Source: a virus. From it: a stretch of 26,194 bases of DNA. Of this stretch, positions 1 through 11,510 are shown piece by piece. The notes beneath the pieces were generated by a model. The model did not search any database and was not told where the DNA came from. It was given only the letters and a program-made list of their open reading frames with translations. Both the position numbers and the translations under genes were made by a program. The first letter of the stretch is position 1. Each line of letters starts with the position of its first letter. The stretch is taken from the UHGV virus genome UHGV-0110177; one strand, given 5' to 3'.

Positions 1-70
1 CTTTTCTCCCTAAATTAACGGTATTAGTAGTTTAACGCTGATTGTGTGGATTGAAACCAGCGCTATGAAA

Positions 71-1357
71 TTAAATGACTTTTTTCATACTCCCTCGCCC
101 GTGGGGGCGTCCTGGGGGCAGTGCTGTCGGCATCTGATTGTTCAGCATGTTGACCTGTTCCTGGTTCATATCACCAATCCACTTGGAGTAAACCTCGTAT
201 ACCATCCGCGCATCTTCATGCCCCATCTGACTGGCTATGAATGACGGGTTCGCTCCGGCCATCAGCGTCCAGCAGGCATATGTGTGACGCGACTGATATG
301 GATTGCGCTCACGTATACCTGAAAGTTTAGTCCCACGCCTCCAGCCATACGAAATCGAGTCCTTGGAAAAGTAACCGCCTTTCGTTGACGAGTATGTTGT
401 CGGTGAAAAAACGAAGCGAAGATATTGCTGCTCAGTTTTTCCGATCTCACGATGATGAAACTGAATTTCCTGTTTTGGACTGTTACCGGTGATTTCGTAT
501 TGCTCCAGCAGAGCATCATGAGCAGGTTTCAGCAACGTTATCGTCCTTATCCCGGCATCTGTTTTAGGGGGTACAAATACTCGCTTGTTCGTCAAATTTC
601 TGGATACGTGGATTTCACCTTTTACCAAATCAATATCTTCCCATGCCAGTGCGCATATCTCGCCCGGCCTCATCCCTGTATGTACCGCAATAATGATGAT
701 TAATGCCTGGCTACGGGGAAGGGCGGCTATCAGTGCCTGGTACTCATGAAGTAAAAGTGGGTCGGGATCATTTTTAGATAACTTGAGTCTCGACACTCCT
801 TCATAAGGAGCATGCAATATAAACTGGCTTCGGTTTGCAAGCTTCAGCATTTCTGATAAAACAGCCATCTGTTTATTGACTGTTGAGGGCGCGCGCCCAT
901 TTTTGATGCGGTTTGGCATTGAAGGGTTGAAAACTTCCCCGGTCAGGAGTTCTTTGCGGTAATTCAGAATATCTGCGTGCTGAATATCAACCAGGCGTGT
1001 GTTCTCACCCACTACTCGTTTCAGGGTGTTAACGACTGATGTGATGGATAGCAAAGTGGCTTCAGATACCTCCAGTGACTTTGTATCTGTAAAAAAATCA
1101 CTCAGTTCTTTGAATGTGGAGATCCGTTTTGTGGACGAAAATTTCTTAAGAGCTTTTGATTCCGGGAAACGATCTGCGTAGTCGAACTTACCGAGTTGTA
1201 TCTCACTCACAATTGCCGCGCGCAGATTGCCCGCTTTTTTAATGTTGCTACTGTTGACAACCCAACCCTGGAGAACTTCGCGGCAACGAATGCCGCGATA
1301 GATAAATGTGATCCTGATTTTTCCGTTATGCAGTTCAACACCAGTCGGGTATTTCAT
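71..1357 (-). CDS. int: Tyrosine recombinase, phage integrase (428 aa)
   Basis: C-terminal catalytic region typical of lambda-family integrases (HTGMRPGE..., RHTYA...GHED...VY); ATG overlaps xis stop by 1 nt; first gene at prophage end. Confidence 0.9.
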   Translation of the reverse strand: MKYPTGVELHNGKIRITFIYRGIRCREVLQGWVVNSSNIKKAGNLRAAIVSEIQLGKFDYADRFPESKALKKFSSTKRISTFKELSDFFTDTKSLEVSEATLLSITSVVNTLKRVVGENTRLVDIQHADILNYRKELLTGEVFNPSMPNRIKNGRAPSTVNKQMAVLSEMLKLANRSQFILHAPYEGVSRLKLSKNDPDPLLLHEYQALIAALPRSQALIIIIAVHTGMRPGEICALAWEDIDLVKGEIHVSRNLTNKRVFVPPKTDAGIRTITLLKPAHDALLEQYEITGNSPKQEIQFHHREIGKTEQQYLRFVFSPTTYSSTKGGYFSKDSISYGWRRGTKLSGIRERNPYQSRHTYACWTLMAGANPSFIASQMGHEDARMVYEVYSKWIGDMNQEQVNMLNNQMPTALPPGRPHGRGSMKKVI

Positions 1358-1572
1358 TAAGCATCCTGAACTAACTGATTAATCTTCGGGTAGTTGTACC
1401 AAAGCAGACCTTTAGAGTTGTCAGTCTGTCCAAGCGCAGTAAGGCGCTTGAAGTGAACACCTTCAACCCATAGTTTCTGGCGATAATTTTTAATCTGTCC
1501 TTCAGTAAGCCCTGTTCTTTCGGTAAGTCTGGACTCAACAACCCACTCTTCGTTAAAAATTACCTGTGACAT
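1357..1572 (-). CDS. xis: Excisionase-like small DNA-binding protein (71 aa)
   Basis: Small basic protein immediately upstream of and overlapping int; SD GAGGTG 4-5 nt before ATG. Confidence 0.7.
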   Translation of the reverse strand: MSQVIFNEEWVVESRLTERTGLTEGQIKNYRQKLWVEGVHFKRLTALGQTDNSKGLLWYNYPKINQLVQDA

Positions 1573-1636
1573 GGTTCACCTCAGGTAACCGGCGCCAGTA
1601 TAGATGCGCCGGTGTTGTGACATTGATAATTCGTTA

Positions 1637-1876
1637 TCAGGCAATCTGCCCTGGCAGTGCGCGCAGTCGGCGCATACCTGTCATTGCGGTGGCTACATAG
1701 CTCTTGTGTCGGTTAACAACTTCTACCGTCACCTTCACGCCATCGACCGCCACGGTATAAGTGGTCTTTGTTTTCTGTCGGCCAAACTCCCCGTAAAGCT
1801 CAACATGTTTTGCCAGTGCTGCATCGCACGCCCGGCGCGCCAGCGGAGATTGCGTGCTGCGGTTAATTAGTCGCAT
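1637..1876 (-). CDS. Hypothetical phage protein (79 aa from ATG at 1876; GTG at 1882 possible)
   Basis: ORF co-oriented with early-left operon; SD GAGGTG before ATG. Confidence 0.5.
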   Translation of the reverse strand: MRLINRSTQSPLARRACDAALAKHVELYGEFGRQKTKTTYTVAVDGVKVTVEVVNRHKSYVATAMTGMRRLRALPGQIA

Positions 1877-1883
1877 ATTCACC

Positions 1884-2156
1884 TCACTTAATCAGGCCAA
1901 GCGTGTAATTAAGTTCATGGAGGCATTCTTTGTCGTACTCAAAGAAGTAGTCCCATTGCTCTTGATTGCGGTGCTCACGAACCATCGCCCAGCGCCAGCC
2001 ATCGCCATCTAAAACGCGGCGAACCTTGCGTTTAACAACGGTATCAACATCGTAAATTACACCGTAATTAGCCCCGAACCCGTTACGCAAAACGTCAAGT
2101 TCAACAGTGATAACCCGGTATAATTTCGGAAGCTTTTTCAGTTCTTCAATACGCAT
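1884..2156 (-). CDS. Hypothetical phage protein (90 aa)
   Basis: ORF in operon; SD GGGGGTGA before ATG at 2156; overlaps 3' end of upstream gene. Confidence 0.55.
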   Translation of the reverse strand: MRIEELKKLPKLYRVITVELDVLRNGFGANYGVIYDVDTVVKRKVRRVLDGDGWRWAMVREHRNQEQWDYFFEYDKECLHELNYTLGLIK

Positions 2157-2766
2157 GGTCACCCCCGTCGATCCGTCTGAATTCGATTACCCACACCCAG
2201 GGGTTAGCATCCCAATTTTCTTGCCCATAGATTGACTGCCAGAGGTAGGCGAAGACATCAGTTGCGTCTGGTTGTGGATTAACACAGCCGCATGGCTCAG
2301 GTTCCCCGCAATTCAGACAGCCACCGTCAATAATGCCTTCTGCTCGCGCATCCTCTTCGCTGATAGCGTTCAACCGCTCAACCCGCACGTCTGTAATTTC
2401 CAGAAGAATACGACTAGCCCAGCGCGGCATGTGAATTGATGGACGCCATCTTCCTTCTTCTGGCCAGTCTGTAGGGGGCGTAGCCCGGTAAGCCATATCG
2501 TGGCTATCCTGGTCGATGTTGTAGCGCGCCCACGTCTCACGCACCCAGATGCGATCGCCGACGGCGCCGAACGGACAATGGATTGCGATATCTTCAATTT
2601 TCGGCAACAACAGTCCGTTAAGAGGTCTGCTTAACCACTTACCGGATAAACTTCCGCTTAATGTTGCCTCTGGCTGCGGCTTGATGATTCGCCGCGTCTG
2701 CGTCTTCCGGCCGTCGAGAATGGCGCGCACCATCTCACCATTAAAAATCATTCCGCGCTCAGTCAT
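2146..2766 (-). CDS. Hypothetical phage protein with C-terminal Cys cluster (CLNCGEPEPCGC), 206 aa from ATG 2766
   Basis: Long ORF; chosen start gives ATGACTGA overlap with the stop of the upstream gene; longer start at 2826 would overlap that gene by 68 nt. Confidence 0.6.
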   Translation of the reverse strand: MTERGMIFNGEMVRAILDGRKTQTRRIIKPQPEATLSGSLSGKWLSRPLNGLLLPKIEDIAIHCPFGAVGDRIWVRETWARYNIDQDSHDMAYRATPPTDWPEEGRWRPSIHMPRWASRILLEITDVRVERLNAISEEDARAEGIIDGGCLNCGEPEPCGCVNPQPDATDVFAYLWQSIYGQENWDANPWVWVIEFRRIDGGDHAY

Positions 2767-3109
2767 TCCAGGCCTCCAGCTCGTTCTGAATCTCTTCGTC
2801 GATATCGTCATTGGTCGCATCTTCATTCAGGAAGTCGCGCGCTTCTTTGAGATATTTTCCCCGGCGCAAGCGATACCAGAGAGAGAGAGAGAACTCATAG
2901 CTCCAGCAGTTCGGCGCGCCGTCATAGTCAAATTTGGCGTTGTTCTCAGCCATGCTCTCAACCATGTTGTAAGCAGTGTTGAGCGCCGCTTCGCGGATAT
3001 ACCCGCGCAGATCACGCTTGCGCCAGTACGGGTTTACTTTCGAATCGCAGAGTGGTTTAAATTCGACTTCCCAGCGGCGAATGCAGCGTGCATTTAATGA
3101 TTTGCTCAT
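2759..3109 (-). CDS. Hypothetical phage protein (116 aa)
   Basis: ORF in early-left operon directly downstream of recT. Confidence 0.55.
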   Translation of the reverse strand: MSKSLNARCIRRWEVEFKPLCDSKVNPYWRKRDLRGYIREAALNTAYNMVESMAENNAKFDYDGAPNCWSYEFSLSLWYRLRRGKYLKEARDFLNEDATNDDIDEEIQNELEAWND

Positions 3110-3143
3110 GTCATTACCGGGAGGGCGAACCCTCCCGCCTCCC

Positions 3144-4145
3144 TTAGCCCACGTATTCCGGTTTCATGTCGTCCAGGGTGATGCGGAACTGGTCATACAG
3201 TTCGTCGCCTAAGTGCCGTTTCGCTGTGTGAAGAGTGCCTTCAGCTTTAGCAAACAGTTCCGCCGCTTCTGGTTCTCCGGGATTCGACAGGGAGTTGATA
3301 GCGGCCTCAACTTTATTTTTGGCGTCAACAAGGTAGTAGCGCTTCACCGCTTTATTTTTCAGCTCAGTGAACAGCGCAGTTCCCAGCAACGCTTTCTGCG
3401 ACTCAATATCAGCGCGGATAGCTTTGGCCTGGTCAACAGAGCTTGCTGTGTCAATGCGGTCGCGTAGGTCGTCGGCAACGGCATCAACGTTAGTTGCTGA
3501 TTCCTGCGCGGTAGCGAGGATGCCTGTTTCGCTGGTGATCTCTTCAACAGTCATTCGCGGGGTTGGATTTATTTCGCGCTCAACGCGTTCCTCCAACTCA
3601 TCAGGGGTGTAGACCCCCAAAATCGCCCATGGTGTGTAGGCACGAGCCCAGTATTTCACTTGCAAGTAGCCAATTTGCTGCTTTGGGTTACTTTTCCACA
3701 GGGGCGAGTTTTTGATTGTTACTTCCGAAACGCAGAGCCATTCATTCCATGTAATGTCTTTTTCTCCGCTAATAATTGCGCCAACACGGCACTCCATCAG
3801 ATCCTTTTCGCCACGATATTCATAATGGAATCGCCCCCGTATTGCGCCGGTGGCAGTCAGTACCGCGCTAACTAACTGAGCTTCATATCCTAGAGTGCCA
3901 TTTATAACGTGTGTTTTCTGACCGACTACGTAGGGGTCCATACCCCATCGCGCGGCTTGCATGACAATGGCGAGGCAGTCTGATGGCTTACCCTGAAGAT
4001 GTTTGGGCACAGTAGAAATACCCTGGGACATAACATCAGCAATCTTCATCATGCGATCCATGACATCGCCATTCAGCAGTAACGAGCCATTATTCATTGT
4101 GCTGGGTGCCTGCTGATCAATTACCGCTATGTTTCTATTTTCCAT
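3144..4145 (-). CDS. recT: RecT/Bet(Red-beta)-family single-strand annealing protein (333 aa)
   Basis: Recalled similarity to lambda Bet/RecT core (PLWKSNPKQ...VKYWARAY compared with GPWQSHPKR...CARLA); start is 13 nt after recE stop with SD AAGGGGGAA; classic exonuclease-annealase pair. Confidence 0.65.
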   Translation of the reverse strand: MENRNIAVIDQQAPSTMNNGSLLLNGDVMDRMMKIADVMSQGISTVPKHLQGKPSDCLAIVMQAARWGMDPYVVGQKTHVINGTLGYEAQLVSAVLTATGAIRGRFHYEYRGEKDLMECRVGAIISGEKDITWNEWLCVSEVTIKNSPLWKSNPKQQIGYLQVKYWARAYTPWAILGVYTPDELEERVEREINPTPRMTVEEITSETGILATAQESATNVDAVADDLRDRIDTASSVDQAKAIRADIESQKALLGTALFTELKNKAVKRYYLVDAKNKVEAAINSLSNPGEPEAAELFAKAEGTLHTAKRHLGDELYDQFRITLDDMKPEYVG

Positions 4146-4157
4146 GACTGTTCCCCC

Positions 4158-7049
4158 TTATGCCTGTACGCGCAGCGCTTCAAGGCGGCGCACATCAAAA
4201 TCGTTGAGTTCTTCGGCGTAATCTTCGGTAATCGGCGCTGGCCATTCGCCAGTGTCGAATCCGTTCGCGATGGCGCGCATTGCTTTGCGGTATTCCAGCA
4301 TGCCGAGTTCAAGCAGTTCTTCGGATGCCTCGATGATGGCGATCCAGTGGTAGTTCTCGTCTTTGTTGACGAATATCCAGAAAAACTGGTCCAGCGCTGC
4401 GGTTTCGCAGTACATGGCAGCGCTCAGGTGATAATCGCGATCGATGATTTCCCGGTGCAACTTCGCGCGCAGACCTTCCTGCTTGATATTCCACATGCTG
4501 ATAGTCTTCAGGTCAGCGCCGATGCGCAGGCCGCCCATGTCAATTTCAAGGTCAGGGCGCACGCGGATTTCCAGCCCGGTTTCCTCATCAATACCGAAAT
4601 AGCTCACCTCTACGGCGCGGTTCGGATGCGTCAGCAGCTTCCCGGCGGTCGGGTGATTCAGCAGCGCTTTCTGGATGGCCTGCGCGGTGCTCAACTGCTG
4701 GCGGGTAACCAGAATTTTATCGCCGGGGTTTTCGCGCCATGCGTCAAGCAGCTCGTCGGCAAACACTGTTTCAGGTTTGACGGATTTCACTGCCTGAATC
4801 AGATCCGCTTTGGTGCCGGATACTTTCAACGGCTGTGGCTTCTGTGCTTCCTGTGCAACGAGATCAGGATTGATGATCGCCAGTTGCTCAAGCAGCGCGT
4901 CACGGCTTCCGCTGGTTTTAACCGGCGCGGGCAGGGTGGCGTTGTATTCTTTGATGCAGGCCTTCATTGCCGCTGCTGTATGCTTAGTCCCGTTTTCGAT
5001 GCGCTGGAACTCTTCAGGCAATAGCTCATATGACGCATACGCTTCGTCGACGGATGCCCCAAGCGGTAATGGCGCGGGCAGGGTGGCGTTGTACTCTTCC
5101 AGCAACGCTTTGATATCGTCTGCGGTGAGTAATGCCGGCAGGCTGGCGTTGTGTTCGTCGATAACCGCGCGGATCGTCGCTGTCGTCGTGAGCGCGCCTT
5201 CCGAGATTTCCGGTTCGATGCTGAACTCTTTTTCCAGTTGTTCAGGCTGTAACGCCAGCGCGTGCACCAGGTTCCCCATATCCAGAACTTTGGTGCGTTC
5301 TTTCTGGATGGTTTTGGATACGTGGCGCGCTTCGAAATACATCAGACTTACACGTGCATCTTTGACCATTGTCGAACTGATGCCATTCGCCGCGTGATAT
5401 ACCTCGTTCGGTACGCCTTCATAACGCCCCGGCTCGAAGTATTCCGGCCACACTGACGCTGGCTCTGGTTCTTCCTGTTGCATTTCCGGCACGTTTTGTT
5501 GCGTTTCTGGCTCAGAATGGCTTGCAGAATCGTTGTTCTGGCTCACTTCCGGCTGATGGTGGTCTACATCGGCTTGCTCGCCGGTATCTGCCTCTTCACC
5601 ATTCCCCAAATCACTTTCGCTTGCGAGCAGCGCATCACCAGTCTGTTCTTCATTACCGTCAGTTTCTTGAACCTGCACATCGGCGGCGTCCTCATTTTCC
5701 GTTTTTTCTCCCTCATTTGAGGCGGCGTTGTAGTCTTCATGAACCCACTTCGGATCGTTAGGGTCACTGATACCTTCAACGTAATCACCGCGCGCAGCTG
5801 CGAGTTGTCGGTTTACTTCTTCAACGGATGGTTCATCCTGTCTTACTGGCGTTGGCATAGGCATGGACGAACGTCCGCAGGCAATATCAACGACAAGCGG
5901 ATCGGGATTGGCGTGGTCAGTTTCTGTCAGCACCTTATTCAGGTACTCGCGGTGGCGAAACGGGGATTTGTATAGTTCATCTGGTGTGGTTTTTACTGTT
6001 GCAACGATGCATGCGCGGGAATAGTCCAGACCACCAGGCATTGACACGAACAGTTCGCGCGTTGCCAGCCACTCAGGGTCGTCAACTGCGTTCATGATTG
6101 AGTTAGCCTTTAGTTCGATCTGCAATGGCAGAGAATAAATATCAAATTCGTACTGACGCGCCAGCAGGCCTAAGGCTATTTCAAATTCAAGACCGAGAGT
6201 GGTCTGGGGCATCTTGCGATCGGATGCAATTCCGCCGCCAGCGTTCGCGCCGCTTTCAGTACGCTGAATAGCTGATACACGATTACCTTTGCACCACTCT
6301 TTAACGAGCAACCCGCGATCAATATGAGGGGTATCGAACCATGTTTTCAGAAACTGGATAACGCTTGCCAGCTCAGGGATTTTGCCATCAGCAGGAAACA
6401 CGTTCTTAACGGCATTTACCGCTTTATGGATATCGTGTTCAATGGCCTTTTTGAATGGTTCAACATTCTCAGCCGCAAGTAAAATGTTCTGGACATATGA
6501 GTTATCAGTGTCCATTTCCAGAGCGAGAATTGCTTTTTTCTGCTCTGCATCGACATGATAGAGATACTCGCCATCGCCAATATGTTGGGCCAGTATGCGA
6601 TGACGGAAGGGCATCGTTGCCACAACGGTTAACTGAGGGTGTTCAGGTAGATCGCCATTGTCTTCAGTTGACGCCTGATCGTGCTGGATAATTTCGCCAG
6701 TTTCGGTATCAACACCATCAACGATACGCTGACGGGCGACGGCAACGGCCTCAGAAGAGGGCAGCGTAACACCGGGGATCTGTACCCAGGTCATGTTGTC
6801 TTTGCCGAGCTGGTAGAAATCGCAGAACGTTAAGCTGAGTTCGCCTTCCGGCGGCAGTTCGTTAACGACAGGGAAATTAGTGGCGACAGCTTTAAAATAA
6901 TCTTTCAGCTTTGCGCCGGATTTAATCAGGAGATAATCCAGTGTGGCATTTGCCGATTCAAAATCATCACTGCACCAGAGAACCGCATCTTTTTGTCCTG
7001 ATGATTTTTTTGCTTTGCGGACTAAAAATACAGGATTAGTTCCACTCAT
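4158..7049 (-). CDS. recE: Exodeoxyribonuclease VIII (RecE-like), 963 aa
   Basis: N-terminus from ATG at 7049 (MSGTNPVFLVRKAKKSSG...VLWCSDDFES...DYLLIKSG...KAVATNFPVVN) matches E. coli RecE N-terminus from memory; conserved LNKVLTETDHANPDP...DIACGRSS block; SD GAGGAT upstream; the ORF-track start at 7259 is a 70-codon over-extension. Confidence 0.85.
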   Translation of the reverse strand: MSGTNPVFLVRKAKKSSGQKDAVLWCSDDFESANATLDYLLIKSGAKLKDYFKAVATNFPVVNELPPEGELSLTFCDFYQLGKDNMTWVQIPGVTLPSSEAVAVARQRIVDGVDTETGEIIQHDQASTEDNGDLPEHPQLTVVATMPFRHRILAQHIGDGEYLYHVDAEQKKAILALEMDTDNSYVQNILLAAENVEPFKKAIEHDIHKAVNAVKNVFPADGKIPELASVIQFLKTWFDTPHIDRGLLVKEWCKGNRVSAIQRTESGANAGGGIASDRKMPQTTLGLEFEIALGLLARQYEFDIYSLPLQIELKANSIMNAVDDPEWLATRELFVSMPGGLDYSRACIVATVKTTPDELYKSPFRHREYLNKVLTETDHANPDPLVVDIACGRSSMPMPTPVRQDEPSVEEVNRQLAAARGDYVEGISDPNDPKWVHEDYNAASNEGEKTENEDAADVQVQETDGNEEQTGDALLASESDLGNGEEADTGEQADVDHHQPEVSQNNDSASHSEPETQQNVPEMQQEEPEPASVWPEYFEPGRYEGVPNEVYHAANGISSTMVKDARVSLMYFEARHVSKTIQKERTKVLDMGNLVHALALQPEQLEKEFSIEPEISEGALTTTATIRAVIDEHNASLPALLTADDIKALLEEYNATLPAPLPLGASVDEAYASYELLPEEFQRIENGTKHTAAAMKACIKEYNATLPAPVKTSGSRDALLEQLAIINPDLVAQEAQKPQPLKVSGTKADLIQAVKSVKPETVFADELLDAWRENPGDKILVTRQQLSTAQAIQKALLNHPTAGKLLTHPNRAVEVSYFGIDEETGLEIRVRPDLEIDMGGLRIGADLKTISMWNIKQEGLRAKLHREIIDRDYHLSAAMYCETAALDQFFWIFVNKDENYHWIAIIEASEELLELGMLEYRKAMRAIANGFDTGEWPAPITEDYAEELNDFDVRRLEALRVQA

Positions 7050-7176
7050 TGTTTTATCCTCACTTCGTGTAGAATGGAGGCGCCTTAATGGCACCTCGGT
7101 TTTACCAAGTAGAATGTCCGGTTCGCTTTGGTCGGTTAGACCGGACAGGGCAAGCCCACCTCGTGTGGGCTTTTGC

Positions 7177-7464
7177 TTAATGAACGGTGCTGAAAACTTT
7201 TTCTGAGTAATCGAGTTTGTAGCTGCGGTAGTTGCCAAACCCGGCGTTATCGCCATCACTTACTTTCACGGACAACATTGAAATTGCCTCTACAGCACAA
7301 AGAGGACAGTCGAACTTGCCGAATACATAGCCACCGTCAAGAATGACCGTGACCGCGCCCGTTTCGGCTGAATGAATAACGCCTGATACTTTCTTCTCGC
7401 AGTTGAATACAGCCAATTCTTTATTCACTGCTTTCAGGTTCATTTCGATTTTTACGATTTCCAT
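7177..7464 (-). CDS. Hypothetical phage protein (95 aa)
   Basis: ORF in early-left operon. Confidence 0.5.
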   Translation of the reverse strand: MEIVKIEMNLKAVNKELAVFNCEKKVSGVIHSAETGAVTVILDGGYVFGKFDCPLCAVEAISMLSVKVSDGDNAGFGNYRSYKLDYSEKVFSTVH

Positions 7465-7504
7465 AAAACTTCTCTGGTTATTAAATTCAGGGTGTAAAAA
7501 GCCG

Positions 7505-7530
7505 CGCCAAATTAATGGCGAGTTTTTTAT
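7505..7530 (+). terminator. Hairpin (CGCCA-aattaa-TGGCG) followed by TTTTTTATTT; intrinsic-terminator-like, oriented for plus strand
   Basis: Read directly; lies inside the minus-strand early operon, so may act as attenuator or bidirectional element. Confidence 0.35.
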
Positions 7531-7551
7531 TTCATATTTCAGAACTGCTGG

Positions 7552-7710
7552 TTAACTTTCGTGCGCCATCTGATCGTATTCAGCGCATTGCTTTGAGCAG
7601 TATTCTTTTTCTTTGTTGGCAAGCCGGTTGCCATTGCGATAGAAAAGGATGCTCTTTACTTCTTTGCCTTCTTCAACGGGTTTGCGGCAGTAACCGCATT
7701 CTTTCTGCAT
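7552..7710 (-). CDS. Small zinc-ribbon-like protein, 52 aa (MQKECGYCRKPVEEGKEVKSILFYRNGNRLANKEKEYCSKQCAEYDQMAHES)
   Basis: Not in ORF track (<60 aa); strong SD GAGGAGGGG 5 nt upstream of ATG; CxxC...CxxxC motif; sits 9 nt downstream of preceding gene stop. Confidence 0.5.
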   Translation of the reverse strand: MQKECGYCRKPVEEGKEVKSILFYRNGNRLANKEKEYCSKQCAEYDQMAHES

Positions 7711-7719
7711 TACCCCTCC

Positions 7720-7905
7720 TCAGATGCTTGCTGGTAGCTCTCCGTTGCGAATGATTCCCTCAACAGGCCAGCACTCACCATTAACCTTTTGCTCGACAGC
7801 TGCGGCCTGGCATTCCTGCTGGTTGTCATATACACCGAGAATCACATCCTGAAAGTCACCGTTGGTCATTGCGACCGTTAATACCAGTGCGAACAAAGAG
7901 TTCAT
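7720..7905 (-). CDS. Small protein with hydrophobic N-terminus (61 aa, MNSLFALVLTVAMTNG...)
   Basis: ATG at 7905 with SD AAGGAA 9 nt upstream; signal-peptide-like N-terminus. Confidence 0.5.
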   Translation of the reverse strand: MNSLFALVLTVAMTNGDFQDVILGVYDNQQECQAAAVEQKVNGECWPVEGIIRNGELPASI

Positions 7906-8029
7906 TTGCTGGTTTCCTTTTTGGTGATACAACCTTTCATGACACACCAAAAAAATCGAAATGGCGCTGTAAAAGCATTCCCTCGAACGGCCTGGATGCG
8001 TGCTGGCTGACGTGCGAAATCAATCATTT

Positions 8030-8254
8030 TCATCCTCTGCGATGACTGTTTTTAATTTCATTCCAGTACTGAAAAGTGCACGGAATGTTTGCATCCAGGA
8101 CTGCCTGCGTGGCCGCAATGATGTTCGCATGCCAGGTTACGCAGACCGTTGCTCGCATCTGCATATAACGCAGTGACGGATCTGCCTTACTCATCAACAT
8201 CCCAGCGCGTGCTGCATCCTGAGAATTGTCAAAGCTAAAAATAACCTCACTCAT
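8030..8254 (-). CDS. Hypothetical protein, first gene of leftward early operon (74 aa)
   Basis: SD AGAGGGA upstream of ATG 8254; ~150 nt leader from candidate pL. Confidence 0.55.
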   Translation of the reverse strand: MSEVIFSFDNSQDAARAGMLMSKADPSLRYMQMRATVCVTWHANIIAATQAVLDANIPCTFQYWNEIKNSHRRG

Positions 8255-8405
8255 GATTTATCCCTCTGCTTGCCGTTGTCGCCCGGCTGGCGGAACGTTT
8301 GATACCTGCTGCGCGTTAACTCATCCACCTCATCACCATCTTCATACGCCTGGTGCGGCTACATTCGTGGGCGTCCTGCCTGGGTGGTCGTGTTGCTGTG
8401 AATTT

Positions 8406-8472
8406 ATATTAAGCCTTAGACTTAACTAGTGTCAAGCTCAGGACTGAATTCATAGTTAAGTTTTAGGCTTAT
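8406..8472. promoter_or_regulatory. OL-like operator/promoter unit: 17-bp palindromes TTAAGCCTTAGACTTAA (8409-8425) and TTAAGTTTTAGGCTTAT (8456-8472); leftward promoter -35 TTGACA (8435..8430) and -10 TAATAT (8411..8406)
   Basis: Palindromes share the half-site TAAG/CTTA with the two sites between repressor and cro; good sigma70 hexamers on minus strand with 18-bp spacer. Confidence 0.6.
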
Positions 8473-8538
8473 TTTTTTGACGAATGTATGGGAGTAGAGG
8501 ATGCTTATGCTCACAAAAACGCCAAAGAGGATGGGTAT

Positions 8539-8742
8539 ATGTCAAACGATGATGAGTTTTTCGCGGAGATGCATCCGCAGATAGCGCAGGTGATCGGTAT
8601 GGCTGTGATGCAGATTCTGGTTGAAGGGCGTGAGATCACAAAGGCAGAAATAATCGAGACGATTCAGGTTCTGTGGCAGGAGGAGCAGGTTGATCTTGCT
8701 GTTGAGTTAGCGCTGGATGTACTAATGCTGCCAAAAGAATAG
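8539..8742 (+). CDS. Small acidic hypothetical protein (67 aa) transcribed rightward from the OL-like region
   Basis: ATG 8539 with SD GAGGA; reading frame continues from the track ORF 8488..8742. Confidence 0.5.
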   Translation: MSNDDEFFAEMHPQIAQVIGMAVMQILVEGREITKAEIIETIQVLWQEEQVDLAVELALDVLMLPKE

Positions 8743-8745
8743 GGC

Positions 8746-8780
8746 AAAAAAAAAGCCCGGAACGTGTCGTAATCCGGGCT
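8746..8780 (-). terminator. Rho-independent terminator for minus-strand transcription (8-bp stem AGCCCGGA/TCCGGGCT, then U9 on the minus strand)
   Basis: Perfect stem plus A9 run on plus strand read directly. Confidence 0.7.
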
Positions 8781-8888
8781 GTAAGTCGGATATATGGTGC
8801 TGTTATTTCTTGTTCATGCACCATAACAGAGCTCGTCTGACCGGAGTGTGTTGTCGCGCATGTTTCAGGGAAAAGACCCCTGCAAAAT

Positions 8889-8966
8889 TCACCAGGCCAG
8901 CATAACCAGTGAAATCGCGGCGACCATAACAACAGTTACCAAGCATACTATCAGATACTCTCTCAT
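8889..8966 (-). CDS. Candidate 25-aa hydrophobic peptide (MREYLIVCLVTVVMVAAISLVMLAW)
   Basis: Only coherent small ORF in a ~300-bp unit bounded by two minus-strand terminators; weak SD; speculative. Confidence 0.25.
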   Translation of the reverse strand: MREYLIVCLVTVVMVAAISLVMLAW

Positions 8967-9093
8967 TATTTTCCAACTGATTATTTGCATCATATATCAA
9001 CAAGGATAGCCTGATTAAGTAGATGTAGCGTGCATGGCTACGAAACAGGCAAGGGTGCAAAGAGGGATGCTGCGGAGTTCGTGAGGAAAGGGC

Positions 9094-9120
9094 AATAAAA
9101 ACCCGGCGTGGTGTCCGGGT
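9094..9120 (-). terminator. Rho-independent terminator ending the repressor operon (stem ACCCGG/CCGGGT, then UUUUUAUU on the minus strand)
   Basis: Hairpin and T-run located 8 nt after the stop of the 118-aa gene. Confidence 0.7.
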
Positions 9121-9127
9121 CGAAGAG

Positions 9128-9484
9128 TTATTTTAGAACAAGTCCATTAAGAGCATCCAGAATTTTTGAAACGTAATTCCCAAAAATATAAGCACAGAAA
9201 GCAAAAATGATGCTCACTACAGCAGCCGATGCTTTTATGGTTGTTTTGGCGGAGCCAATGCCTGTCTCTATTGCCGCTAACCTTGAATCGATTGACTTTA
9301 TGTCAGATTTTACTTCAGCGATATCGCGCTTAATGTATTCAACATCTGACTCAAGCTTTGCAACTCTTGCCTGCATGTCACCACCCCCACCAGAACCATC
9401 ACCGTCTTTGAAGTTAGTATGGGGGGTTACAGCTCTATTTTCAACTGGCGCTTTCGCGGGGTTAAAACTATAAACTTGCCCCAT
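9128..9484 (-). CDS. Tail-anchored membrane protein: Gly-rich linker, coiled coil, C-terminal TM helix (118 aa; alternative ATG at 9376 gives 82 aa)
   Basis: ORF co-transcribed downstream of repressor; ~42% GC versus ~52% in core genes; C-terminal hydrophobic segment AAVVSIIFAFCAYIFGNYV. Confidence 0.6.
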   Translation of the reverse strand: MGQVYSFNPAKAPVENRAVTPHTNFKDGDGSGGGGDMQARVAKLESDVEYIKRDIAEVKSDIKSIDSRLAAIETGIGSAKTTIKASAAVVSIIFAFCAYIFGNYVSKILDALNGLVLK

Positions 9485-9920
9485 TTACGGCATCTCCGGT
9501 GTGATGAATTACATGAAAATAACAGCTATGGCTGTCGATTATTTCGCTTGTCTTATTACCATGTTCATCATTTTTGAAGTTTGTAATTTTGGCTTCATAA
9601 AGCCCCTCTTTACTGAGGTCTACATCGCTGACAAACATAGATGAAATGTAACAAACGTGATCGCTTTCAATGAAGTTGATTGATGATGTTTCAAAATAAC
9701 CATCATCATCATGCATAATGATTACTGTATGATTATTAAATAGAATATCTATTTCAGTGCGTACAAGATGATTTACAGGGACAGAAAAGCCTATAGTGAT
9801 AATCACTGTCTGCAACTCATTTGTAGGAGAGGGGGATAGCATCGGCATGGGCTGATACCACTTAAGCCCCTTTATTCCATCTTTCTGTAATGTGGGATAA
9901 GCAAACAGAATTTTATTCAC
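9468..9920 (-). CDS. AT-rich hypothetical protein (150 aa, GTG start)
   Basis: GTG at 9920 with SD AAGGAAG 8 nt upstream; ~37% GC; sits between repressor and membrane protein. Confidence 0.55.
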   Translation of the reverse strand: MNKILFAYPTLQKDGIKGLKWYQPMPMLSPSPTNELQTVIITIGFSVPVNHLVRTEIDILFNNHTVIIMHDDDGYFETSSINFIESDHVCYISSMFVSDVDLSKEGLYEAKITNFKNDEHGNKTSEIIDSHSCYFHVIHHTGDAVNGASL

Positions 9921-9977
9921 TTGATTGCTTCCTTAACACTTAAAATGTGCCACTAGAGCATGATTTTCAAAAAACGG

Positions 9978-10364
9978 CTATTCTCCGTCACCCTTAATCC
10001 GCCGCCCCATGTACTTGGCGTACAGCTCGTCGAGTTCCTTAAGGCGCAGAGACACGATCCGCAACATGTTCTGCTGCTCTTCTTCCGGCAACTGGCGATA
10101 GAGCTCGAGTAGGCGCTGTTCGTCAGGCTTAAGACCGTCCTTCTCTCCAACATCCTCACCAAGTAGCCAGGGAACTGATACGCCAGCAGCATCTGCAACC
10201 GCTAATGCAGAACTTTTGCTAATAACACCTTTTTTGAACCAGCCGTTTACGGATTGCGGGGTAATCCCCGCAACCCTTGCCATATCAGATTTTGTCATCC
10301 CTCGTTGCGTCAGTTCTGTCAAACGCTCGATGAGAATCGGGTTAAGTATTTTTTTCTCAGCCAT
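9978..10364 (-). CDS. Prophage repressor, HTH (XRE-type), 128 aa, no recognisable LexA-like S24 cleavage domain
   Basis: HTH motif MTKSDMARVAGITPQSVNGWFKKG; divergent from cro-like gene across the operator region; short C-terminal helical domain only. Confidence 0.8.
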   Translation of the reverse strand: MAEKKILNPILIERLTELTQRGMTKSDMARVAGITPQSVNGWFKKGVISKSSALAVADAAGVSVPWLLGEDVGEKDGLKPDEQRLLELYRQLPEEEQQNMLRIVSLRLKELDELYAKYMGRRIKGDGE

Positions 10365-10373
10365 ATCAGAAGA

Positions 10374-10441
10374 ATAAGCCTTTTGCTTATAAATTAAAAT
10401 TCGCTCAGGACTTGATCTTTTGTTAAGTCTGAGGCTTAATT
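10374..10441. promoter_or_regulatory. OR-like operator/promoter unit: palindromes ATAAGCCTTTTGCTTAT (10374-10390) and TTAAGTCTGAGGCTTAA (10423-10439); rightward promoter -35 TTGATC (10412-10417), -10 TTAATT (10436-10441)
   Basis: Inverted repeats read directly; placed between divergent repressor and cro-like genes; cro SD GGAGA follows. Confidence 0.65.
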
Positions 10442-10467
10442 TATTTGTGAATCTAGTGGAGATACTC

Positions 10468-10701
10468 ATGAACGGATTAGAAAAGGCCATTCAGAAAGCT
10501 GGCACTGCCAGCAACTTAGCCGCAAAGCTAGGCATTAAACCGATGTCGGTTAGTCGCTGGAAAACACGATACAAGGGCGTCGTGCCAGCCGATCGTGTTT
10601 TACCAATTTTCAACGCAACTGGTGTTACCCCCCATGAATTGCGCCCTGATCTGTATCCGAACCCCACGGACGGATTACCAGCGCAGGATGCGAGGGCGTA
10701 A
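10468..10701 (+). CDS. Cro/YdaS-like HTH protein (77 aa)
   Basis: HTH (ASNLAAKLGIKPMSVSRWK); first gene rightward of operators; SD GGAGA. Confidence 0.75.
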   Translation: MNGLEKAIQKAGTASNLAAKLGIKPMSVSRWKTRYKGVVPADRVLPIFNATGVTPHELRPDLYPNPTDGLPAQDARA

Positions 10702-10703
10702 CC

Positions 10704-11246
10704 GTGCATTCAATTTCATTTCAACAAAATACCGGGTTTCCTCCAGCCACGATGATAAATCGCAATCAGCCTGATCCGGCGGATAAGCATGACCAGATTC
10801 GGGCTGCCGTTCGTGCGTGGTCGGCATCGCTGGACAACCAGGACGTAGTCGCCGGGATCATCGTTGAGGAATGGGAACGGCAGGGCGGCGCCGGGCTGGA
10901 TTTTCCTGACGACCTGAGCCGTAAGCGGCAGAAGCTTTTCCGCTGGCTGGACAGCGATACCGGATATGCGCGCGAAAACATCCGTCAGCTGACTCCGGCG
11001 ATCCTGGCTGTTTTGCCGCTTGAGTTTCGTGGTCGCCTTATCGGACAGGATTGTTTCATGACGCGTTATGCAGCGATGGAGAAGGAAATCAGCGAGGCGA
11101 AACAGGCCGTAATGCTGAATGCGCCAAAGCATCAACTGGTGAAAGAGGTCAGGGAAGGGATTGAGCATCTGCTGAATATGTTGCCGGGTGATGCTGTCGT
11201 TCAGGTTCTGAGTGGTATCGCGGCCATAGCGCCGGGTGTCATGTGA
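10704..11246 (+). CDS. YdaT-family protein (CII-position regulator), 180 aa from GTG
   Basis: Recalled similarity to E. coli YdaT core (EEWERQGGAGL...LTPAILAVLPLEFRGRL compared with EEYLRQGGGEL...LIPAILAILPRELRHRL); SD GAGGG before GTG. Confidence 0.65.
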   Translation: MHSISFQQNTGFPPATMINRNQPDPADKHDQIRAAVRAWSASLDNQDVVAGIIVEEWERQGGAGLDFPDDLSRKRQKLFRWLDSDTGYARENIRQLTPAILAVLPLEFRGRLIGQDCFMTRYAAMEKEISEAKQAVMLNAPKHQLVKEVREGIEHLLNMLPGDAVVQVLSGIAAIAPGVM

Positions 11247-11255
11247 GGTTGCCAG

Positions 11256-11510
11256 ATGAATCATTTGGAGTTCATAGAAAAGCATGTCCGGGAAGAGTTG
11301 ATCCGCCAGGGCTTCACCGTAGCGGTGGCTCAGGGAGGGGCATTTCAGGCCGTCGATATGTACAAGCGAATGAGCCAGGCAAGCAGAAAGGGGAGGATTT
11401 TTGATGATGTTTTACGCCACGCGAAATTGTGGGCAGAAAAGCAAACATTACCGGCTGATCGGTTTGATTCAAAACGGGCTAAACGGGGCAAGCAACAGGG
11501 CTTGTTCTGA
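11256..11510 (+). CDS. Hypothetical protein (84 aa)
   Basis: ORF in operon; SD GAGG. Confidence 0.5.
   Translation: MNHLEFIEKHVREELIRQGFTVAVAQGGAFQAVDMYKRMSQASRKGRIFDDVLRHAKLWAEKQTLPADRFDSKRAKRGKQQGLF

Follow-up and report, generated by a model that had tools for sequence, protein, structure and literature searches.

The window, meaning the whole 26,194-nt stretch of the virus genome UHGV-0110177, contains around positions 8406-8472 a group of ORFs that Pfam and PHROG searches identify as a Rac-type lambdoid immunity region. A short HTH_3 repressor is paired with a divergent YdaS-family gene in the Cro position and then a YdaT gene, which is the composition of a RacR/YdaS/YdaT module. HTH_3 was the only domain found in the 128-aa repressor, and an S24 peptidase (LexA-like cleavage) domain was absent. 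Replication genes lie to the right of the YdaT/CII-like gene. The early-left genes are all on the minus strand and comprise DUF1482, phrog_1520 and phrog_2434 members followed by a gene for a 1033-aa RecE-like protein. The genes that matter most here are the following.

8539-8742, plus strand: gene for a 67-aa acidic four-helix protein (phrog_3946), with a Shine-Dalgarno AGAGGA at 8526-8531
9978-10364, minus strand: gene for a 128-aa RacR-like repressor (Pfam HTH_3, E = 2.9e-07; PHROG category transcriptional regulators)
10468-10701, plus strand: Cro-position gene of the YdaS family (PF15943, E = 1.2e-14)
10704-11246, plus strand: YdaT/CII-like gene (PF06254, E = 2.8e-47; phrog_163, CII-like)

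No near-identical phage or E. coli prophage was found, and no record covered the left operator region (OL) described below. The repressor-cro part alone matches the Salmonella phages SW-37 and SEN34 and the coliphage mEp237 at 78-85% identity. Citrobacter is the probable host, since proteins from this genus are 100% identical to the 67-aa product. The repressor operon continues 3' with two accessory genes (9128-9920, minus strand) in a rexAB-like position. One encodes a 150-aa protein, has a low GC content (34-39%) and matched no family. The product of the other, a 118-aa member of phrog_6136 with weak similarity to XhlA, is glycine-rich over one stretch, contains a coiled coil and has a hydrophobic segment at its C-terminus. 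These two genes may have exclusion or defence roles.

Our analysis of the noncoding DNA started from the motif TAAG-N7-CTTA, which has five matches in the window (2619, 8410, 8457, 10375 and 10424) compared with 0.18 expected. Four of them form two pairs, one at 8406-8472 (OL) and one next to the repressor gene (OR), separated by 1,967 bp. The start-to-start spacing is 47 bp in OL and 49 bp in OR, in agreement with the first-pass annotation of this DNA. Sites were scored with a leave-one-locus-out 17-mer weight matrix (PWM), and the four OL and OR sites took ranks 1-4, with OR-right at 25.2 and OR-left at 19.5. In both units the site embedded in a promoter scored highest (26.1 and 25.2) versus the distal one (22.0 and 19.5). 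The sites and the two promoters are as follows.

8410-8424: OL-left, palindrome TAAGCCTTAGACTTA, top PWM score of the window (26.1), flanked by the -35 and -10 of PL
8433-8447: OL-mid, operator-like CAAGCTCAGGACTGA, weak, PWM 5.6, rank 11 of ~26,000 positions
8457-8471: OL-right, palindrome TAAGTTTTAGGCTTA, PWM 22.0, rank 3, the distal (O3-like) OL site
10375-10438: OR, made up of OR-left (10375-10389), a weak site in the middle (10400-10414) and OR-right (10424-10438)
8435..8406, minus strand: promoter PL, -35 TTGACA (8435..8430), 18-nt spacer, -10 TAATAT (8411..8406), 10/12 consensus positions
10412-10440, plus strand: promoter PR, TTGATC (10412-10417), 17 nt, CTTAAT (10435-10440)

The four matches and their PWM ranks bear out the earlier proposal that 8406-8472 is a second operator unit, which would be recognized by the same repressor as OR. 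The fifth match (TAAGAGGTCTGCTTA, 2619-2633) lies far from both units, falls outside the top PWM ranks and is probably a chance occurrence.

The first-pass annotation had described this unit as a diverged copy of OR in the same orientation. In part this holds, and over a longer stretch than was claimed: 8436-8494 aligns with 10403-10461 directly and without gaps at 43 of 59 bases (73%). The best direct ungapped score of 27 is far above that of 2000 dinucleotide-preserving shuffles of 8380-8500 and 10360-10470 (8.9 +/- 1.25, maximum 19). The shared 10-mer GCTCAGGACT is present at 8436 and 10403 and nowhere else in the 26-kb window, with 0.01 occurrences expected. Taken together, the shuffles and the expected counts (0.18 and 0.01) rule out a chance origin of the likeness between OL and OR. 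The central and right part of OL aligns better with OR in the direct orientation; OL-right and OR-right agree in 13 of 15 bases, and past the right-hand operator the direct similarity runs on for another 26 nt (18/26 bases). Because the direct 59-nt match goes beyond the operator consensus, OL may be partly descended from OR or have been homogenised with it. What does not hold is the same-orientation description of the unit as a whole, since its functional layout is a mirror image of OR and inverted alignments score equally well (gapped local scores of 28.5 inverted and 28.0 direct). The inverted alignment is as good as the direct one because the operators are palindromic. OL-left is identical to the reverse complement of OR-right at 14 of 15 bases, the block 8405-8426 matches 10422-10443 in inverted orientation at 20 of 22 bases, and OL is itself an inverted repeat around its own centre, its two 19-nt arms being 89% complementary.

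PL was the sole site at the 10/12 level in a consensus promoter scan of 7900-10800, and the near-consensus leftward promoter previously noted over the left palindrome is therefore upheld (TTGACA-18-TAATAT). Its transcript would start near 8399. Read on their own strands, the promoters are TTGACA-ctaGTTAAGTCTAAGGCTTAATATA for PL and TTGATC-ttttGTTAAGTCTGAGGCTTAATTTA for PR, and the 20/22 inverted block makes them mirror images, each built around its nearest operator, as in lambda. The TGTCAA and the AT-rich -10 of PL are kept in nearly all RacR-type relatives. PL lies upstream of the DUF1482 and RecE-like genes, so, as had been suggested, it would drive the early-left operon. In terms of sequence, then, the region has the features of an OL/PL: sites of the OR consensus, a promoter that points away from the repressor into the DUF1482 and RecE-like genes, and a layout that mirrors OR/PR.

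Between the strong sites of each unit lies a weaker one. OL-mid includes the 10-mer (8436-8445) and overlaps the -35 of PL, and the central OR site (10400-10414), which carries the same 10-mer, likewise overlaps the -35 of PR. In the window itself the central sites speak against a tripartite arrangement, being weak, with a score of 5.6 for OL-mid and a negative one for its OR counterpart. The relatives speak for it. Three loci, L006 (Citrobacter werkmanii), L007 (Atlantibacter) and L030 (Phytobacter), encode repressors that are 59-95% identical to the one in the window and have operators of the same type. They retain the 47-bp and 49-bp spacings, and halfway along OL as well as OR each has a site that fits the operator consensus less well (for example CAAGTCTTAAACTAA, CAAGCCCAAGGCTAA and CAAGTCTATGGCTTT in OL, TTCGCCTAAGACTTG and TTCGTCTCAGGCTTG in OR). 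These central sites take PWM ranks 5-12 per 8-kb locus at fixed offsets, and the equivalents of OL-mid take ranks 5-7 at the same offset (+23/+24). The presence of a weak third operator at the position of the 10-mer in relatives suggests that OL and OR are probably tripartite, with centres 23-25 bp apart. The central cores are identical in the window but not in the relatives, which hints at homogenisation between OL and OR.

The arrangement extends beyond loci with this operator type. All RacR-type relatives, whose operator sequences differ, have a promoter-embedded site, TGTCAA and a second site ~47 bp away, and the OR layout likewise recurs in all of them despite their other operator sequences. 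In ~15 of 22 RacR-type relatives a terminator follows within tens of bases of the right-hand site with no gene between them; it consists of a conserved A-run and hairpin, and L007 and L030 have a terminator after OL-right. A rightward ORF of 37-48 codons and uncertain status lies beyond the terminator in L007, and an initial description of that locus as devoid of any rightward ORF was dropped. A near-identical A-run and hairpin, GCAGGCAAAAAAAATCCCGAC, lies to the right of OL in L007-L012, L015, L016, L025 and L028. It marks the boundary of OL and the repressor operon in RacR-type prophages with differing operators, which suggests a conserved recombination junction, or a terminator, for the exchange of immunity cassettes.

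Based on these observations, we consider it likely that positions 8406-8472 are the core of the OL/PL region of a Rac-type (RacR/YdaS/YdaT) lambdoid prophage. The 128-aa repressor would recognize 15-bp palindromes of the form TAAGYCTnAGRCTTA, of which OL would hold two strong examples (8410-8424 and 8457-8471) and probably a weak third between them (8433-8447). Repressor bound to OL-left, inside PL, would block RNA polymerase. The central and right-hand sites would most likely serve cooperative binding and perhaps looping between OL and OR over the 1,967 bp. Upon derepression, PL would be transcribed leftward through a structured leader RNA (8390..8322) into the early genes of kil/recE type. 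The OL/PL region itself is ordinary, textbook biology. Its value lies in the annotation of an uncharacterised immunity type, for which it provides the operator consensus, the probable tripartite layout and the mirror-image lytic promoters.

The leader of the PL transcript contains the following element.

8322-8390, minus strand: structured leader RNA (covariance model R1, 78.9 bits, one copy in the window)

It begins ~10 nt past the predicted PL start and forms a three-way junction with stems P1 (5 bp), P2 (3 bp, GGC/GCC) and P3 (5 bp, closing a conserved loop of 12 nt). Model R1 (68 positions, 13 pairs) was built from an alignment that shows compensatory changes. Among 72 distinct sequences, standard pairs fill 96.9% of cells compared with 73.1% in column shuffles, and both sides have changed in 10 of the 13 pairs, with up to five pair types. 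When the pairing partners were slid by 1-3 columns, only 22-44% remained paired. The G-U pairs fall on the PL-sense strand. Folding of the single sequence gave nothing better than shuffles (z = +1.9), and the structure is visible through covariation only. R1 is found once per related locus, just downstream of PL, in the window and in L001, L002, L004, L006-L031 and L115-L194. The invariant 22-mer core of the RNA occurs in at least 120 IMG/VR contigs. The ~145 nt from PL to the first ORF are conserved in SW-37, SEN34, mEp237, Klebsiella phages and nearly all RacR-type loci, and a 43-53-nt leader core is also present in SfV, SfII, ZF40, phiNP and Yersinia phages. An Rfam search of 7000-11500 returned no match in OL or the PL leader, its only hits being isrB and a sub-threshold match (both described below), and no occurrence of the core sequence was found in the literature. 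The leader RNA is thus widespread and apparently undescribed. It is a candidate for a regulator that acts in cis on early-left transcription.

Several other elements were noted in and around this leader. A second conserved block at 8270-8320 (minus strand) consists of ACGCGCAGCAGGU...AACGUUCCGCC and a small hairpin of 4 bp that covaries to some extent. Peculiar to this window is a mini-ORF of 9 codons, AUGAAGAUGGUGAUGAGGUGGAUGAGUUAA, which overlaps the motif of the leader RNA in its 3' half. Further along the operon, a weak terminator-like hairpin with a T-run lies at 7520..7505 (minus strand) between the 52-aa and 95-aa ORFs, ahead of the RecE-like gene. It may be a tL-like site, in which case read-through would be needed. 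A full-length Rfam match to isrB, an Hfq-binding sRNA (RF01386, 74.7 bits, E = 1.2e-12), lies at 7087-7175 on the plus strand, antisense to the early-left operon and just upstream of the RecE-like gene. The sole promoter-like scan site in 1-8400 (7088-7115, plus strand) coincides with the isrB start.

The absence of a leftward N-like antiterminator, as stated by the first-pass annotation, was confirmed: Pfam and PHROGs searches of the five early-left ORFs (7177-8254) revealed no antiterminator family. Rfam likewise found no nut-like RNA family, so that neither half of a lambda-type N/nut system was detected in these searches. Put-like antitermination by the leader RNA is an attractive hypothesis by analogy with HK022. 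The RNA showed no similarity to HK022 put by sequence or model (putL was also read directly), and it is present as a single copy rather than as putL and putR; a second, putR-like copy was not found in the window. R1 finds no match in the KilS leader of the K-12 Rac prophage either. R1 also gave no match in HK022, epsilon34 or ST104.

On the other side of OL, the 67-aa ORF is a real gene. It matches phrog_3946 over its full length (E = 2.9e-33) and has 319 homologues, most of them listed at 67 aa. As the first-pass annotation pointed out, it runs convergent to the repressor operon (8539-8742 on the plus strand versus 9978-10364 on the minus strand). A terminator and a terminator candidate for leftward transcripts lie between the two, and are listed here with the candidate promoter of the gene.

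8746-8780, minus strand: intrinsic terminator, hairpin and U9 (-15.7 kcal/mol, z = -3.4, 0/200 shuffles as stable)
9121..9100, minus strand: second terminator candidate from the scan
8477-8511, plus strand: candidate promoter of the 67-aa gene, TTGACG (8477-8482), 17 nt, GATGCT (8500-8505), or TATGCT (8506-8511)

The 8746-8780 element, an A9 run and hairpin on the plus strand, stands at the end of the 67-aa gene and is not followed by a U-run in that direction. A sub-threshold Rfam match (8747-8794) lies over the terminator. Homologues of the 67-aa gene adjoin OL on its right in epsilon34, ST104, Klebsiella phages and 80 IMG/VR contigs. Members of phrog_3946 were located in L003 and L005 (3501-3701 in both). 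The gene is unannotated in the epsilon34, ST104 and g341c references, where it is conserved at ~65% identity.

The phages that carry this gene have at least six unrelated operator sets and share a block of 40-60 nt upstream of it. An alignment of 83 loci shows that the block comprises an extended -10-like TGnTA(A/T)GCT, an A-rich leader and a Shine-Dalgarno. Since the block is kept across at least six operator sets, the 67-aa gene appears to be an independently promoted cassette rather than the Cro-position gene of a duplicated switch. On this comparative evidence we picture it as a small cassette that is mobile, would bring its own promoter and leader, and was inserted between OL and the terminator for leftward transcripts. 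In the window, TATGCT (8506-8511) aligns with the extended -10 of the cassette in other phages, and TTGACG-17-GATGCT is common to L006, where another small ORF follows the same leader. Both candidates fall below the scan threshold, and promoter function is inferred. The candidate starts (~8512-8518) are both downstream of OL-right, which would accordingly be centred at about -49 to -54. As OL-right ends 5 bp before the candidate -35, the repressor could have an effect, positive or negative, on the cassette promoter.

Searches of Pfam, PDB sequences and PADLOC with the 67-aa protein gave no matches. The fold predicted for it is similar to YmgB/AriR (2OXL) at a modest score, again with no Pfam match to that effect. 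In other RacR-type loci the slot is taken by small helical ORFs of other kinds, one of which is a clear member of DUF2767 (E = 1.6e-37), a family for which we found no mention in the literature. Comparison of the profiles of that DUF2767 slot gene and the 67-aa family gave a weak match (E = 0.031). In the Rac prophage of E. coli K-12, sieB has the same position and orientation as the 67-aa gene. With differing small ORFs and sieB at one place, the slot beside OL looks like a site for accessory cargo.

A broader reading joins the two sides of OL. It combines two undescribed elements in this widespread group of N-less lambdoid prophages, a put-like, protein-independent leader RNA that would permit read-through into kil/recE and a YmgB/AriR-like cassette that would be controlled by the distal OL site. 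We regard this combination as doubtful, and offer it tentatively. If it is true, OL would be a genuinely bidirectional control region, and the leader RNA would modify the PL transcription complex so that it passes terminators or escapes Rho-dependent termination.

An alternative closer to the first-pass annotation is that OL is a direct duplicate of OR with a divergent promoter pair, in which the right-hand site represses a PR-like rightward promoter. The 67-aa gene would then be silent in the lysogen and come on at induction, and would interfere with the repressor operon by collision or through its protein. The 43/59 direct alignment with its identical 10-mer, the 13/15 match of OL-right to OR-right, the 18/26 bases beyond the operator and the lack of a strong plus-strand terminator after the 67-aa gene are all consistent with such a duplication. 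Nevertheless, we find it unlikely. The hexamers that align with TTGATC/CTTAAT of PR are TGAATT/CTTATT, with only 5/12 consensus positions, and no plus-strand promoter-like site was reported by the consensus scan in 8440-8540; the "OR-like rightward arrangement" described earlier is thus degenerate. The inverted alignment is equally good, and L006 has no similarity past the operator. A rightward gene is not conserved with the operator unit, as the 67-aa gene was found in 0 of 26 loci with a related repressor, and the cassette with its upstream block stands beside at least six unrelated operator sets instead. In L007, L030 and most other relatives, OL-right is present without a gene before the terminator. 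Conservation of the OL layout without a following gene suggests that OL-right belongs to OL and not to a rightward promoter.

A further alternative, that OL-right is an activator site from which bound repressor (centred ~49-54 bp upstream of the start) stimulates the cassette promoter, so that the 67-aa protein is lysogen-specific with a lysogenic-conversion or exclusion function like sieB or rexB, fits the 5-bp gap to TTGACG, the position of the distal OL site 10-20 nt upstream of the cassette block in every immunity type, the moron-like layout (promoter, gene, terminator) and the place of sieB in K-12 Rac, but is very unlikely given that the operator-promoter distance differs between immunity types, that the junction by the distal site may be a mere recombination boundary, and that we know of no activation surface in RacR-type repressors.

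Returning to the OL/PL reading, its wider interest lies in what flanks the operators. Many N-less lambdoid prophages of the Enterobacteriaceae have in common a strongly covarying leader RNA right after PL that is absent from Rfam. Should this RNA act on elongation or termination, phage early transcription would have a second class of cis-acting RNA regulators, after HK022 put, and the early-left expression of Rac-like prophages would become directly testable. On the other side, small helical proteins (phrog_3946, DUF2767 and relatives) are found at one fixed place next to OL in many immunity types.

Several known systems can be compared with the locus. The leader RNA alone resembles HK022 put, in that both are structured RNAs of ~65 nt, ~10-20 nt from the PL start, in an N-less phage. 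They differ in that no similarity links them and in that HK022 has putL and putR, whereas a single three-way junction is present here. Epsilon34, ST104, g341c and ST974-OXA48phi18.2 have a homologous 67-aa gene in the same orientation just right of their annotated or evident OL, with the conserved upstream block and an A-run and hairpin past the stop codon. These P22-like and Klebsiella phages with phrog_3946 differ in their repressors and operators, which are unrelated, and some of them have LexA-type repressors with N and nut.

The Rac prophage of K-12 shares YdaS, YdaT, a RecE-like protein and small early-left genes with the window. In it, too, an accessory gene that reads rightward, sieB, separates the early-left promoter region from the repressor operon. 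For its racR-ydaS intergenic region, several RacR operators and a promoter with TTGACA/TAATAT have been reported (PMC11879457). Its operator sequences are different, the leader ahead of kilR, which is annotated as the sRNA KilS, lacks an R1 match, and SieB takes the place of the 67-aa helical protein. Unlike lambda, the window has a 128-aa HTH repressor without a LexA-like cleavage domain, 15-bp TAAG-N7-CTTA operators with weak central sites, no N protein or nut site, and a rightward small gene beside OL. The overall plan is nonetheless that of lambda OL/PL and OR/PR: two operator clusters ~2 kb apart flank the repressor operon, each probably has three sites whose centres are about 23-25 bp apart, the repressor gene has a weak site overlapping its start, and the strongest site of each cluster lies within a lytic promoter, the two lytic promoters being mirror images.
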